The notes under the pieces are model-generated. The model was not told where the DNA came from. It ran no database searches and worked only from the letters and a program-made list of their open reading frames with translations. The translations under genes and the position numbers were made by a program. Below, piece after piece: positions 46,213 to 51,773 of a stretch of 64,000 bases of DNA (position 1 is the stretch's first letter; each line of letters starts with the position of its first letter). Location of the stretch: NCBI GenBank assembly GCA_016212295.1, contig JACRGO010000237.1:215-64214 (forward strand). Reading direction: 5' to 3'. This stretch comes from Nitrospinota bacterium. GTDB lineage: Bacteria > Nitrospinota > Nitrospinia > JACRGO01.

Positions 46213-47067
46213 ATGCCAATGGCTATTCACTGGTCAGAATCCGAAGTCGAGGCAGCAGTTGAAGACTACTTCAACATGCTCCGCCAGGAGTTGACCGGTC
46301 GCAAATACAACAAGACCGAGCATCGCCGGGCATTAATGGAACATCTGAACAATCGGTCAGAAGGTTCGGTTGAACTGAAGCATCAAAATATCAGCGCCGT
46401 TCTGATCGAGATGGGTATTCCATACATTGACGGATACAAGCCACGTTCAAACTACCAGCGCACACTACTGCCCGCAGCGGTGTCTGATTTCCTCGCCAAT
46501 CACCCCGAGTTTCACGCGCTGTTCCAAGAGGACTCCGAGGTCGCGCCATCCATCCCATCGGTTGCGGATTTTCTCGCGGCGATGGAAGCTCCGCCAAGGC
46601 CGGAAAACAAGGGCAGCTCAACGATCGCGGAGACTCAAGCTATCTACAATCCCGCCGGTGTGAACTACCTGGAACGGGAGGCGCAAAATCATTCACTAGG
46701 AGACGCCGGGGAACAATTCGTCATCAATTTTGAGCGGGCCAGGTTAATCCACGCCGGGAAGGAATACCTCGCGGATCAAATTGAGCAAATATCAGTCTCG
46801 GTCGGCCCTTCCGCTGGGTTTGATATCCGGTCGTTTGAAGAAAACGGAACAGACCGCTTTATCGAGGCAAAAACCACGAAATACGGCAAGAGCACGCCAT
46901 TCTTCGTTACTCCCAACGAGTTGGATTTCTCACGGGAGAATGCAACCCGGTACTTTCTATACCGTGTCTTCAAGTTCCGCGCGGAACCACGCTTGTTCAC
47001 TTTGCATGGCTACTTGCAGGATCAGTGCATACTCCAGCCGTCGCAGTACTTGGCGAAGCCAGCGTGA
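46213..47067 (+). CDS. COG3183-N-terminal-domain plus DUF3883 (restriction-endonuclease-like) protein
   Basis: The N-terminus 'EAAVEDYFNMLRQELTGRKYNKTEHRRALMEHLNNRSEGSVELKHQNISAVLIEMGIPYIDGYKPRSNYQ' matches the non-catalytic N-domain of HNH-type predicted restriction enzymes. The C-terminal half 'GDAGEQFVINFE...GFDIRSFEENGTDRFIEAKTT...FFVTPNE...YFLYRVF' fits DUF3883. Confidence 0.55.
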   Translation: MPMAIHWSESEVEAAVEDYFNMLRQELTGRKYNKTEHRRALMEHLNNRSEGSVELKHQNISAVLIEMGIPYIDGYKPRSNYQRTLLPAAVSDFLANHPEFHALFQEDSEVAPSIPSVADFLAAMEAPPRPENKGSSTIAETQAIYNPAGVNYLEREAQNHSLGDAGEQFVINFERARLIHAGKEYLADQIEQISVSVGPSAGFDIRSFEENGTDRFIEAKTTKYGKSTPFFVTPNELDFSRENATRYFLYRVFKFRAEPRLFTLHGYLQDQCILQPSQYLAKPA

Positions 47068-47129
47068 AATCTGGCAATGCGTTGCAACTGGCGTATTGAC
47101 ACGATTTGATCTTTTTTATAACATGAAGG

Positions 47130-47714
47130 CGAAAATATATCCCCCCTGCTTCTTCGGAAGCAGGGCGCGAGGCCGGGGATGCCGATTTCGATACCCTCAT
47201 CGCCTGCGCCTTCAACTATGACGCCCATTCCTCGGAATTCGATAAACTGGGCCGGATTCCGGTGCTCAAGGCCAGGATGAACGCCGACCTGCACATGGCA
47301 GGCGACCTCAAGAACACCGGCAAGGGGAACCTTTTCGTCATCTTCGGAGAGCCGGACATTGACATCCTCGACGCCGGGGACGGGCAGGTGCGGGTGAAGA
47401 TCAACGGCGTGGATGTCTTTCATCCCAACACCGGAGAGATTCGCAGCGACGGCGCGGAGGGGATCGCCTGCTGGTTCATCGACACCGATTATAACGAAGA
47501 GAGCTTCTTTGTCCGCCACGCCTATTTTCTCGGGGCCAACGATCCCTACAAGTCCCTCAAAACCACCCTCAAGGCCGAGATCAACGAAGAAGCCTGGGGT
47601 ACCCTGAACAGCGACACCTCCCGCCCCTTCCGGAAACCAAAATCCGGTCGGATCGCGGTAAAGGTGATCAATCATCTGGGGGATGAGGTGATGAAGGTGT
47701 TTCGTCTGAAATGA
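47130..47714 (+). pseudogene. orphan C-terminal fragment of a DNA methyltransferase (type III Mod / type IIG-like)
   Basis: The frame opens right after an in-frame TGA with no start or N-terminal catalytic domain. The C-terminal 'EAWGTLNSDTSRPFRKPKSGRIAVKVINHLGDEVMKVF' resembles the conserved tail of adenine-specific Mod-type methyltransferases. It is GC-rich, unlike its neighbours. Confidence 0.4.
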
Positions 47715-47744: not shown

Positions 47745-49258
47745 GTGTTCACGGGAGTGTCTGCCATGCGCCTGACTATCGAACAGCTCCAAAGCATTAT
47801 GAACTCCACGGAAGGGGAGCATTTCGAATTCAAGGAAGCCAAAACCAAATTTCATTTTGAGAAGCTCCTTAAATATTGTGCTGCTTTAGCGAATGAGGGT
47901 GGTGGGGAAATGGTTCTCGGCGTTACCGACAAACGGCCAAGACATGTGGTTGGAACTCAGGTGTTTTCTCAACCGGAACGGACGAGAAGCGGGCTTATTG
48001 AAAAGCTGCGTTTAAATATCAATTTTGATGAAGTCCAGCATCAAAATGGGCGCGTCCTGATTTTTCACGTTCCCTCTCGCCCCGTCGGAATGCCGATCAA
48101 GGCGGAAGGCGTTTACTGGGAACGAAAAGCCGACAGCTTGGTTCCTATGTCTGAAAATCGGCTTCGTGAAATCTTCTCCGAGGCAGGGCATGACTTTTCA
48201 GCCCAGATATGTTCAGGCGCAACAATAGCTGATTTGATCCCGGCGGCCATTGAAGATTTCCGGAACCGGTGGCTTATCAAGTCAAACAATCCCGGTTTAT
48301 CCACGTTGAGCCATGAACAGCTTCTTTCCGACGCCGAAGCGGTTGTTGATGGTTATCTTACCTATGCCGCGTTGATCTTGTTCGGAACAAAACAAGCTCT
48401 GGGCAAGTGTTTAGCCCAATCCGAGGTGGTTTTTGAATATCGGTCTTCCGATGCCTCAGGTCCAGCCCAGCATCGAGAAGAATTTAGAGAAGGGTTTTTC
48501 AGTTATTATGAAAAATTATGGAAGTTGATTAATTTGCGTAATGATATCCAGCACTTTCAGTCAGGTTTATTCCTGCTGGATATCCCGACTTTTTCGGAAC
48601 GGCCAGTTCGAGAAGCTGTCTTAAACGCCGTCAGCCACCGGGATTATCAGCTCGGAGGCAGCATCTTTATTCGCCAATATCCAAGGAAGTTGGTGTTTGA
48701 GAATCCAGGCGGATTTCCGGTTGGCATAAATCTCGATAATATCCTTGATCGCCAGTCGCCGCGCAATCGCCGCATCGCGGATATTTTTGCAAAATGTGGT
48801 CTTGTGGAGCGTTCCGGTCAAGGCATGAACCTGATGTTTGAGCGAAGCATTCAGGAAAGCAAAGCAATACCTGATTTTTCCGGCACTGATCAGTACCAAG
48901 TGATATTGAAAATCGCCTTCAACCTCGATTACAGACACTAGTGTCAAAAGGCGTCATCGAGCGCTTTGGCCGTGGGCGCGGTGTTAAATACATTCTCAGC
49001 CGTCAATATTATCAGATGGTAGGGAGTAGGGGTGTATATACGAGAAAGAAGGGATTGGATCGTGAAACAAACAAGACCTTACTTTTGAAACATATCGTTG
49101 AAAATTCCGAAACCGGAAGCCGCCTCAAGGAACTGAGACAAGTGCTTCCTTCGTTATCAATGCCACAAGTGCAAACCCTGCTTAGAGAACTTAAATTAGA
49201 AAGAAAAATTCATAAAACTGGAGCTACACGAGCGGCTCTTTGGCATGCCAATCTTTAA
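47745..49258 (+). CDS. Schlafen/AlbA_2-domain ATPase-like protein (COG2865 family) split by a frameshift at 48941
   Basis: ORF 47745..48941 has an N-terminal AlbA_2-like 'EGEHFEFKEAKTKF...' and a HATPase_c_4-like middle. ORF 48941..49258 (GTG start overlapping the TAG) carries 'GVIERFGRGRGVKYIL' and a wHTH, which normally forms the C-terminus of the same polypeptide. Confidence 0.6.
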
Positions 49259-49384: not shown

Positions 49385-51457
49385 ATGGAATTTCGAATAG
49401 CCGATACCTTTACCGACAGCCTTTCCAAACTTAACGGAGAGGAACAGAAGGCCGTCAAGACCACCGCCTTCGACCTCCAGATGAATCCAGCCAATCCGGG
49501 GATGCAGTTTCATAAACTGGACAGGGCCAAGGACGCCAATTTCTGGTCAGTCCGTGTGAGCCGGGACATCCGATTAATTGTCCACAAAACAAAATCCAGC
49601 CTCCTGCTCTGCTATGTCGGGCACCATGATGACGCCTATCACTGGGCCGAACGGCGAAAACTGGAAACGCACCCGAAGACCGGCGCCGCGCAGATGGTTG
49701 AAGTTAGGGAGACCATAAAAGAAATCACCATCCCCAAATATGTTGAGGTTGAGCAACCCGTACCTTCCAAGCCCTCCCTGTTTTCGGATGTGTCCGACAA
49801 TGAACTCCTGAATTACGGTGTGCCGTCCGAGTGGTTGAACGATGTGCGGAAAGCCAATGAGGACAGCCTATTGGAACTGGCCGGCCACTTGCCAGGCGAG
49901 GCAGCCGAGGCGTTGCTCAATCTGGCCACCGGGGTGACGCCGCAAATCGCACAGCCGGGTTCCACTGAAGTTGATCCCTTTGACCATCCCGACGCCAAGC
50001 GGCGGTTCCGGGTGATGAACAATGTCGAGGAACTTGAACGTGCCCTGGAATATCCCTGGGAGAAATGGACTGTCTTTCTTCACGCCGCGCAACAGGAGTA
50101 TATAGAACAGGATTACACCGGCCCGGCAAGGATTTCCGGTTCCGCTGGCACTGGCAAGACTATTGTGGCCCTCCATCGAGCGGTTTTTCTTGTCCGTTCC
50201 AACCCTGAAGCCAGGGTGTTGCTCACCACATTCTCCGATACCTTGGCGAATGCACTGAGAACAAAATTGAGACGCCTGATCTGCAACGAACCGAGTCTGG
50301 GCGAACGTCTGGAAGTTTACGCCATGAATCAAATTGGCCTCAGACTCTATGAACTGAATTCTGGACGTCCACGGATCGCATCCCGAAAAGATATCAAGCA
50401 ATTTCTTGAAGAAGCCTCCATTCAAATAGAAGGACACAAGTTTACCCTGCATTTCCTGATGACGGAGTGGGAGGAGGTTGTTGACGCATGGCGGTTGGAA
50501 ACCTGGAAGGCGTACCGCGATGTTACGCGACTGGGAAGAAAAACGCGTCTGCCGGAGAAACAACGTGCCATGCTCTGGTCTATTTTTGAACGTGTGAGGT
50601 CCAATCTGAAGACCCGGAATCTTGTAACATACTCCGCCTTGTTCAGTCGTCTGACGTCTCAACTGGGTAAAAGCAAGCACCCGCCTTTTGATTTCGTCGT
50701 TGTGGACGAGGCACAAGATGTTAGTGTGGCTCAATTGCGGTTTCTGGCTGCCCTTGGGGCCAGACGAAAGGACAGCCTTTTTTTTACCGGAGACCTTGGG
50801 CAGAGGATTTTCCAGCAACCCTTCTCCTGGAAGGAACTTGGCATTGATATTCGCTGGCGTTCCCGCACACTGAGAATTAATTACCGCACCTCACACCAGA
50901 TCAGAATACAGGCTGATCGGTTGTTGGGACCTGAGTTGTCCGACGTGGACGGCAATGCAGAAGAACGGCGCGGTACAATTTCTGTTTTCAACGGGCAAAA
51001 TCCAACTATTATGATTTTAGATAGTCAGAAAGAAGAAATTAAAATGGCCGGCAAATGGATATCGGACCGTATAGGGGAAGGCTTAGCGCCAAGCGAGATA
51101 GGCGTTTTTGTCCGTTCCGAAGCGGAACTGGACAGGGCGCGGACCGCTGTTAAAAAAACGGGCTTGCCCTATAAGGTTCTCGACGAGAAGGTCGAAACAA
51201 CCGCCGGAAATATTTCCATCAGTACCATGCACCTTGCCAAGGGCCTGGAGTTCCGCGCCGTTGCTGTGATGGCCTGTGATGATGAGGTTCTTCCCTTGCA
51301 AGAAAGAATCGAATCCGTAGCGGATGATTCCGACCTGGAAGAGGTTTACAACACGGAACGTCATTTGCTTTACGTAGCCTGTACCCGGGCACGGGACTAT
51401 CTTCTTGTAACAAGTGTTGATCCGGCATCGGAATTCATTGATGATTTGAAGATGTGA
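49385..51457 (+). CDS. UvrD/Rep-like SF1 helicase with N-terminal RelE/ParE-like domain
   Basis: 690 aa. The N-terminal roughly 90 aa 'FWSVRVSRDIRLIVHKTKSSLLLCYVGHHDDAYHWAE' fits the RelE/ParE toxin-fold consensus. The rest has Walker A 'GSAGTGKT', a DEAQD box 'VVVDEAQDV' and C-terminal UvrD motifs 'ISTMHLAKGLEFRAVAVM...VACTRARDYL'. Confidence 0.7.
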   Translation: MEFRIADTFTDSLSKLNGEEQKAVKTTAFDLQMNPANPGMQFHKLDRAKDANFWSVRVSRDIRLIVHKTKSSLLLCYVGHHDDAYHWAERRKLETHPKTGAAQMVEVRETIKEITIPKYVEVEQPVPSKPSLFSDVSDNELLNYGVPSEWLNDVRKANEDSLLELAGHLPGEAAEALLNLATGVTPQIAQPGSTEVDPFDHPDAKRRFRVMNNVEELERALEYPWEKWTVFLHAAQQEYIEQDYTGPARISGSAGTGKTIVALHRAVFLVRSNPEARVLLTTFSDTLANALRTKLRRLICNEPSLGERLEVYAMNQIGLRLYELNSGRPRIASRKDIKQFLEEASIQIEGHKFTLHFLMTEWEEVVDAWRLETWKAYRDVTRLGRKTRLPEKQRAMLWSIFERVRSNLKTRNLVTYSALFSRLTSQLGKSKHPPFDFVVVDEAQDVSVAQLRFLAALGARRKDSLFFTGDLGQRIFQQPFSWKELGIDIRWRSRTLRINYRTSHQIRIQADRLLGPELSDVDGNAEERRGTISVFNGQNPTIMILDSQKEEIKMAGKWISDRIGEGLAPSEIGVFVRSEAELDRARTAVKKTGLPYKVLDEKVETTAGNISISTMHLAKGLEFRAVAVMACDDEVLPLQERIESVADDSDLEEVYNTERHLLYVACTRARDYLLVTSVDPASEFIDDLKM

Positions 51458-51575: not shown

Positions 51576-51773
51576 CTACCATAGAAAGGAGTTGCCCCTC
51601 GCCTTTTTTCTCTTGACCAGGAGGGTGTCCCTGGTGATGAGGACCCGGCCCTCCGCCAAGGCCAGCTCCACAAGCTCGCCGTCTTCCATGCCGGGGAAGC
51701 ATTCCACGTCGCAGCCCAGGATGCGCATCCACTTCGCCAACCGGCCCAGCATGCCGTCCACGAGGAATTTCAT
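51576..51773 (-). pseudogene. Mut7-C/DUF82 (PIN-like RNase) N-terminal fragment
   Basis: 65 aa. The 'MKFLVDGMLGRLAKWMRILGCDV' N-terminus is typical of Mut7-C proteins, but the zinc-ribbon C-terminal half is missing. The ORF stops about 120 bp from the helicase gene end. Confidence 0.45.

Follow-up and report, generated by a model that had tools for sequence, protein, structure and literature searches.

An orphaned ArmD-like RelE–UvrD helicase in a Nitrospinota bacterium and the type III-like restriction–modification operons of its relatives

The RelE–helicase gene and its surroundings

Within the window, by which we mean the whole 64,000-nucleotide stretch of Nitrospinota DNA that was analysed, an intact gene on the forward strand (49385–51457, +) starts with ATG and encodes a 690-residue RelE–UvrD helicase resembling ArmD, as judged from its open reading frame, domain scans and homology. 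The reading frame includes all the sequence strings quoted in the original prediction, which had taken the protein for a RelE/ParE-like domain of roughly 90 residues fused to a complete UvrD-like motor, had placed such an architecture in phage defence and had proposed a two-gene module with the adjacent COG2865 gene.

The UvrD-like SF1A ATPase/helicase core spans residues 225–690 (50057–51457, +), with its Walker A at 50138–50161 (+) and its DEAQD sequence at 50705–50719 (+). Pfam UvrD-helicase (residues 234–477) and UvrD_C (residues 603–677) both score over their cut-offs and motifs I, II (DEAQD), III, IV, V and VI are all there, in agreement with the motor that had been predicted. The nearest solved structures to the core are PcrA, UvrD, Rep and HelD. 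The NCBIfam models for PcrA, helicase IV, HelD, Rep and UvrD match the protein weakly, with 69.7 bits for PcrA (equivalog cut-off 911) and 45 bits for UvrD (cut-off 1144). The full-length AF2 model was poor (pLDDT 66, pTM 0.42), and a fold search with it returned generic UvrD-like matches only, at low TM-scores. A protein of identical sequence has been deposited from a Nitrospinae/Nitrospinota MAG. The homology search scored over 8000 homologues, the best 120 of which come from many phyla, are all about 690 residues long and share 74–78% identity with the window protein. Among proteins clustered at 50% identity, 3267 clusters match its first 230 residues. Several homologues carry the JGI labels 'RelE of RelBE' or 'SF1 helicase/RelE'. 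The Walker A lysine, the DEAQD sequence and motifs III–VI are invariant in 85 relatives that were taken from the genome collection (85/85), and every family-invariant residue is present in the window helicase.

Upstream of the helicase we find the remains of a Mod gene, the modification partner that precedes the helicase in its relatives (below). The remnant (47145–47714, +; PADLOC MTase_III and tblastn) corresponds to Mod residues 745–932, its reading frame being open from a GTG at 47262. It matches MTase_III positions 818–982 of 983 (PADLOC, E 5e-81) and holds the last ~190 codons only, at 88% identity to the full Mod of a related locus (L032; tblastn). No Res homology and no full-length Mod were found across the 64-kb window; at the place of Res and the missing part of Mod lies a NOV_C gene, a PADLOC candidate of type PDC-S36 (46213–47067, +). 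Res and ~80% of Mod have been deleted from the window, and the helicase is thus an orphaned, intact remnant. The COG2865-type gene (SLFN_AlbA_2 and HATPase_c_4 domains; 47745–49258, +) is split into open reading frames of 398 and 105 residues. Downstream, a truncated Mut7-C RNase-domain gene on the reverse strand (51576–51773, −), cut after position 61 of the 146 in the Pfam model, adjoins the helicase stop and delimits the inserted island on the right. This border, the housekeeping-type O-methyltransferase on the left flank and a fall in GC to 36% at 45–46 kb indicate that the window holds an inserted, decayed defence islet of ~7 kb. Taken for the window alone the result is modest, a remnant orphaned within a small and decayed defence islet.

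The N-terminal domain and its putative active site

Residues 1–90 (49385–49654, +) are predicted to adopt the RelE/YoeB/YafQ fold. We modelled residues 1–192 with AlphaFold from a shallow alignment (25 homologues, 75–81% identity), obtaining pLDDT values of 89–95 across residues 1–100 and the layout β(2–5), α(7–14), α(18–33), β(42–44), β(53–57), β(62–68), β(72–80), α(81–89). The model continues with a β-hairpin at residues 91–106 (RRKLETHPKTGAAQMVE; 49655–49702, +), the most conserved segment of the family, followed by a disordered stretch and a four-helix unit (residues 138–181). The linker (residues 107–136; 49703–49792, +) is of low confidence (pLDDT <50) and poorly conserved (mean pairwise identity 48%), and the small four-helix domain (residues 137–183; 49793–49933, +) reaches a pLDDT of ~85. 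Matches in a fold search with the N-terminal domain include the Cami1-70S structure 8phj. The first 100 residues stay below the Pfam gathering thresholds, ParE_like giving 16.4 bits (E 0.009; threshold 24.4) and HigB-like 16–17 bits (E 0.016; threshold 27), and neither phmmer with the single sequence nor hmmsearch with a profile found a match of the N-terminus among PDB sequences. Since the sequence-profile searches were sub-threshold or empty, the fold was settled by structure prediction alone. Two checks proposed along with the original prediction, a comparison with RelE, ParE and YoeB structures and an inspection of the RelE catalytic residues, were run. The first recovered a RelE fold in the model rather than a mere variable extension of the helicase.

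For the second, the putative RNase site (H43, R57, D61, R63, H81 and Y85) was aligned by MAFFT with YafQ, whose sequence was checked against PDB 4ml2, and with YoeB. Against YafQ, H43 falls on H50, R57 on H63, D61 on D67 and H81 on H87. Y85 lies one turn past H81, near the position of the C-terminal aromatic residue that is F91 in YafQ and Y87 in RelE. In what we take to be the YoeB sequence, H43 would correspond to E46, R57 to R59, R63 to R65 and H81 to H83, with Y85 presumably near Y84. All six positions are conserved in 83–85 of the 85 relatives: H43 and R57 in 84 each, D61 in 83, and R63, H81 and Y85, together with H67, in every one. Mean pairwise identity in the same set is highest in the hairpin (87.5%), followed by the RelE domain (75%) and the motor (67%). 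Distant ArmD-type homologues keep R63, H81 and Y85. Position 43 varies between His, Glu and Lys, being Glu in these distant homologues as in YoeB, and position 57 is Tyr in a homologue from Thermus. Judged from these alignments, the catalytic positions of RNase-type RelE domains are retained in the window protein, and their near-invariance in the 85 relatives shows that the constellation is under purifying selection. We infer that the domain has RNase activity.

Operons and cargo genes of the relatives

At least 573 candidate stretches encoding relatives of the RelE–helicase were confirmed in GTDB species genomes, spread over more than 15 phyla at 65–78% identity. Our neighbourhood census took the best 80 loci of these at least 573 matches (one genome per species) and a few further contigs and plasmids; neighbouring genes were called as simple longest open reading frames, in sequences that come largely from MAGs. 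The relatives show a regular gene order on one strand, Res (~1020 residues), Mod (~930 residues) and then the RelE–helicase, frequently with a stop/start overlap (TGATG) at the helicase start. Res combines ResIII and RE_endonuc domains and scores 1398 bits on NCBIfam NF046055 (BPTD_3080 family restriction endonuclease), and Mod carries an N6_N4_Mtase domain. When the operon census was restricted to the 49 loci whose upstream sequence extends for 9 kb or more, the C-terminus of Mod was found upstream of the helicase in 47, a full Mod in 41 and full copies of both Res and Mod in 36; both loci without Mod still have an N-terminal fragment of Res. The conjugative plasmid p1NCPPB4222 of Pseudomonas avellanae (locus L086, 4034–12094) carries the bare three-gene Res–Mod–helicase operon flanked by IS elements, and a Rhizobium plasmid homologue (48% identity) likewise has Res and Mod as partners. 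Given the Mod C-terminus in 47/49 loci and the regular same-strand order, the RelE–helicase is the conserved last gene, or 3′ anchor, of a type III-like restriction–modification (RM) operon in this clade. We consider it very probable that both the identity and the context of the protein have been read correctly.

The junction between Mod and the helicase accommodates further genes, the two being more than 1 kb apart in 29 of the 47 loci. Inserts in the loci that we sampled belong to known kinds of defence system: IetA with IetS, SIR2 with HerA, GmrSD, AbiP2, a UG10-type PrimPol-RT (DRT-like), a TIGR04255 set of three genes and an OLD/PARIS-like ATPase. A second slot, from Res to Mod, often holds COG2865-like genes. 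Inspection by eye of 48 upstream and downstream cargo junctions revealed no shared recombination or attC-like motif. The idea of a conserved recombination site was dropped, the frequent TGATG overlaps being all that the junctions have in common.

No conserved small open reading frame that might encode an antitoxin lies beside the helicase, and in the relatives the upstream gene is Mod or cargo. We counted the missing antitoxin or neutralising partner against the overall explanation given below. The C-terminal domain of Mod was considered as a neutraliser of RelE. It is 72–94% identical across phyla and is what is left of Mod in several decayed loci (the window, L070, L072 and L077). This role is unsupported: three loci (L056, L066 and L067) have intact helicases and lack that domain, and the conservation is not specific to it, because Res is similarly conserved. 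Loss of Res and Mod has left the helicase intact in the window, in these three loci and in L072 and L077. In one locus without Mod (L083) the helicase is a pseudogene with a deletion of R63-L-I and an in-frame stop.

Possible mode of action and likeness to known systems

The assignment of this architecture to phage defence holds, since ARMADA II, an experimentally validated system, depends on the homologous protein ArmD (PMC12458937). A RelE-like domain with a GajB-like UvrD core has been described for ArmD of ARMADA type II, the assignment to GajB being made by HHpred (Bell et al., bioRxiv 2025.09.15.676423; PMC12458937). The system of E. coli NCTC 12900 gives protection from 13 phages out of 80 and needs all four genes; defence is lost with the ArmD substitution K266A and reduced with D454N, and every mutant listed is either a Walker A/B mutant or a gene deletion (PMC12458937). 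Defence is apparently direct and non-abortive and proceeds without metabolic shutdown (PMC12458937). In EHEC EDL933 (OI-172), deletion of armD has milder effects than deletion of any of the other three genes (bioRxiv 2025.09.22.677730), an observation that we also counted against our overall explanation.

The window protein is 31% identical to an E. coli IncY plasmid protein over residues 5–677 (E 2e-94), covering all domains. The Walker residues of this plasmid protein lie at K266 and D454, the same numbering as in published ArmD, and its gene is preceded by one for a 2113-residue DEAD+MZB YprA-like helicase; homologues from Thermus, Tsukamurella and Aulosira (30–38% identity) have gene orders compatible with ARMADA II. 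ArmD and the protein described here share a collinear RelE-like domain, hairpin, linker, helical domain and GajB-like UvrD core, conserve R63, H81, Y85, Walker A and Walker B, and are encoded by the last gene of an operon with a methyltransferase and an SF2 helicase-nuclease. The partners differ, however. In ARMADA they are ArmA (Snf2), ArmB (PglX-like methyltransferase) and ArmC (YprA-like DEAD+MZB with a Vsr nuclease), whereas in this clade they are a type III-like Res (ResIII and PD-(D/E)xK, BPTD_3080 family) and an N6_N4_Mtase Mod, with a variable cargo slot before the helicase. The window itself has neither ArmABC nor full Res and Mod, and the order armA–armB–armC is found upstream of the helicase neither there nor in 47 of 49 close relatives. 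Since the upstream genes are type III-like Res and Mod, the window helicase is ArmD-like and lies outside any ARMADA system.

Because ArmD is homologous across every domain and already described, the RelE–helicase architecture is not new. The fusion is of a known kind, and what is previously undescribed is its association with type III-like RM. In the searchable literature we found ArmD described within ARMADA alone, and came across no description of an RM-linked RelE–helicase clade. Type III restriction goes unmentioned in the ARMADA paper (bioRxiv 2025.09.15.676423), as do helicase fusions in Gerdes' 2025 survey of multidomain RelE/ParE toxins.

Taken as a whole, the window protein is probably best explained as an ArmD-family RelE–motor protein, encoded by the last gene of a mobile type III-like RM operon, orphaned in the window and acting through an RNase. 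In it, a flexible linker and a small helical domain would join a RelE-type ribonuclease domain to a GajB/UvrD-like SF1A ATPase, and the horizontally mobile operon would comprise the BPTD_3080-family Res helicase-nuclease, the long Mod, optional defence cargo and the RelE–helicase. The motor may bind DNA structures that arise when methylation-guided restriction meets foreign DNA, much as GajB senses DNA termini, after which the tethered RelE domain could cut mRNA on ribosomes. Invader expression would then be shut down, locally on coupled transcripts. Alternatively, RelE cleavage might serve as a back-up when restriction fails or is blocked, as with PrrC. Local action on coupled transcripts would agree with the non-abortive phenotype of ARMADA, and a global toxin role is argued against by defence that is direct, non-abortive and free of metabolic shutdown. 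We infer both the trigger of the RNase and any dependence on Res and Mod, and we put the RNase-effector mechanism forward tentatively, as a possible one among those discussed here.

Its main rival is a catalytically silent RelE-like domain, which might act as an adaptor docking Mod, Res or RNA polymerase, or as an RNA- or ribosome-binding sensor regulating the motor; the protein would then only assist the restriction system as a translocase. This could explain why ARMADA II reportedly defends its host without abortive infection and why no antitoxin was found. It also fits with the hairpin at residues 91–106, rather than the catalytic residues, being the most conserved segment, with the variation at positions 43 (His/Glu/Lys) and 57 (Tyr in Thermus), and with the weak similarity of the helicase core to the RNAP-binding HelD/HelR. 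We regard a silent domain as unlikely, if still a reading to be taken seriously.

An autonomous, single-gene abortive-infection sensor-effector, in which the helicase senses phage nucleic acid and frees the RelE toxin with no need of a neighbour, would account for the survival of the helicase alone in the window, and for intact genes in the five further loci without Res and Mod named above; fused sensor–RelE effectors are moreover known (Cami1). However, 47 of 49 relatives lie in the Res–Mod operon, often with a TGATG overlap, all four genes are needed in ARMADA II, and the L083 helicase pseudogene is consistent with decay after loss of the RM genes. Taken together, these points make autonomous action improbable.

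A dedicated two-gene module of the helicase and the adjacent COG2865/Schlafen-like ATPase, as first proposed, has very little left in its favour. The two genes are neighbours on the same strand in the window, and COG2865-like genes turn up in 7 of the 86 related loci. However, some 92% of the loci lack such a gene, and those present belong to varied families, occupy varied positions, mostly between Res and Mod, and with one exception are 23–30% identical to the window copy. The one close homologue (L074, 55% identity) lies upstream of Mod, and compared with it the window gene has a change of frame and lacks residues 376–422 (~47 residues). The co-occurrence of the helicase with COG2865 genes, suggested with the original prediction as a further check, was run and instead returned type III-like Res and Mod as the conserved partners (47/49 loci). 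The neighbourhood census thus rejects the partnership: COG2865 is one cargo gene among many and no dedicated partner, and the window copy is probably such a cargo gene that has become a pseudogene. Overall the original observation is confirmed and its interpretation partly supported, holding for the fold, the motor and the link to defence and failing for the COG2865 module. Finally, a UvrD, Rep, PcrA or HelD helicase that serves housekeeping repair or replication and varies in its N-terminal extension, which the generic UvrD/PcrA/HelD similarity might suggest, can be dismissed with near certainty, because the NCBIfam scores lie far below the equivalog thresholds, and furthermore the N-terminus is a conserved, predicted RelE fold, the distribution is patchy (plasmids and defence islands in more than 15 phyla at 65–78% identity) and the orthologues are not universal single-copy genes in syntenic core-genome positions.

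ArmD, recently validated but mechanistically unexplained, is connected here with another host system, type III-like RM, which is far more widespread. The presence of an ArmD-like protein in two otherwise unrelated systems suggests that the RelE–helicase is a portable module that equips DNA restriction with an arm directed at RNA or translation. We judge it a fair question, with the chances somewhat short of even, whether RelE–UvrD (ArmD-like) proteins serve quite generally, and interchangeably, as the RNA-targeting third component of restriction systems that combine methylation with a helicase-nuclease. The present clade would then be a three-gene type III-like RM, very widespread and so far undescribed, whose Mod–helicase junction is a slot exchanging complete defence systems (IetAS, SIR2–HerA, GmrSD, AbiP2 and DRTs). 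The conserved R63, H81 and Y85 make direct point-mutant tests possible, and the cargo slot between Mod and helicase offers a practical hunting ground for new defence genes.

Several other systems share parts of this arrangement. The SF1A core is closest to GajB-type models (PADLOC, E 7e-24), but GajB lacks a RelE domain and is partnered by the OLD-family nuclease GajA, for which PADLOC gave no match among the window neighbours. CnuH of type II/III-A CoCoNuT (eLife 2024, PMC11090510) likewise joins an SF1 helicase to a RelE/colicin D-like 'RNase toxin-like' domain in a restriction-type defence system. It differs in being Upf1-like (SF1B), with an internal domain in which the RelE catalytic residues are not conserved, and in belonging to a McrBC-based system (PMC11090510). 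Cami1, a CARF–RelE effector of type III CRISPR (PDB 8phb and 8phj), provides a precedent for a fused RelE domain acting on ribosomes (Cami1-70S, 8phj), but uses a CARF sensor for cA4 rather than a helicase and has no RM context. YafQ, YoeB and RelE share the predicted fold and active-site geometry of the N-terminal domain; they are, however, stand-alone toxins of ~90 residues with an adjacent antitoxin gene, whereas here the domain is joined to a 600-residue motor. At PrrC–EcoprrI, an anticodon nuclease is embedded in a type Ic RM locus, placing an RNase effector within an RM operon. PrrC is an ABC-ATPase/HEPN-like anticodon nuclease, unrelated to the RelE–helicase in sequence and fold, and provides the conceptual model for a back-up to restriction.

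A cargo slot in related operons

In operons related to that of the RelE-UvrD helicase, the gap between the Mod stop codon and the helicase start codon holds complete known defence systems. Six loci from other genomes carry such cargo (L046, 6468-10001; L006, 6342-9955; L025, 7471-9564; L015, 2483-4024; L074, 4754-9886; L014, 1327-3078), and the systems found in these gaps are IetAS, SIR2-HerA, GmrSD, AbiP2, PrimPol-RT and an OLD-like ATPase. The cargo genes are frequently coupled translationally to the helicase via TGATG. The Mod-helicase gap is a cassette-like cargo slot within a restriction-modification operon. A further cargo set of three genes (~253, 181 and 140 aa) at L052 (8282-9979) recurs in L015, L022, L035 and L069. 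Its first gene encodes a TIGR04255-family protein and the other two are without family assignment; this set may represent an undescribed defence cassette.

Other related operons have decayed, and three of them represent separate, independent outcomes. In L066 (9362-12109) Res aa 1-227 is fused in-frame to the helicase, in L077 (4132-4737) homology to Res aa 1-43 overlaps a remnant of Mod aa 741-932, and in L083 (9599-11722) the helicase is a pseudogene with R63-L-I deleted and an in-frame stop past DEAQD.

The proposed islet in the window

Exactly at the position of the missing Res and most of Mod, the window carries a gene for a 284-aa NOV_C-domain protein (46213-47067, + strand), which is matched over its full length by the PADLOC candidate defence family PDC-S36 (E 3e-105). 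The open frame of the Mod remnant is directly preceded by a σ70-like promoter match (47096-47124, + strand; TTGACA, 17-nt spacer, TAACAT; 10/12 positions). This match may be due to chance: the region contains six sites of this kind, versus 4.1 expected.

At 45-46 kb, on the left side of the proposed islet, GC content decreases to 36%. On the right, a 65-aa ORF (51576-51773, − strand) has a Mut7-C RNase-domain match in Pfam (E 7e-17) that is restricted to positions 1-61 of 146. The gene appears to be broken off beside the helicase stop codon, and the break would be the right-hand boundary of an inserted islet of ~7 kb.

A conserved β-hairpin

Conservation within the helicase family (alignment A4) is highest in a β-hairpin, RRKLETHPKTGAAQMVE (49655-49702, + strand; aa 91-106), with a mean pairwise identity of 87.5%. 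Its HP.TGA.Q core is kept in ArmD homologues of the ARMADA anti-phage system at 30% overall identity.
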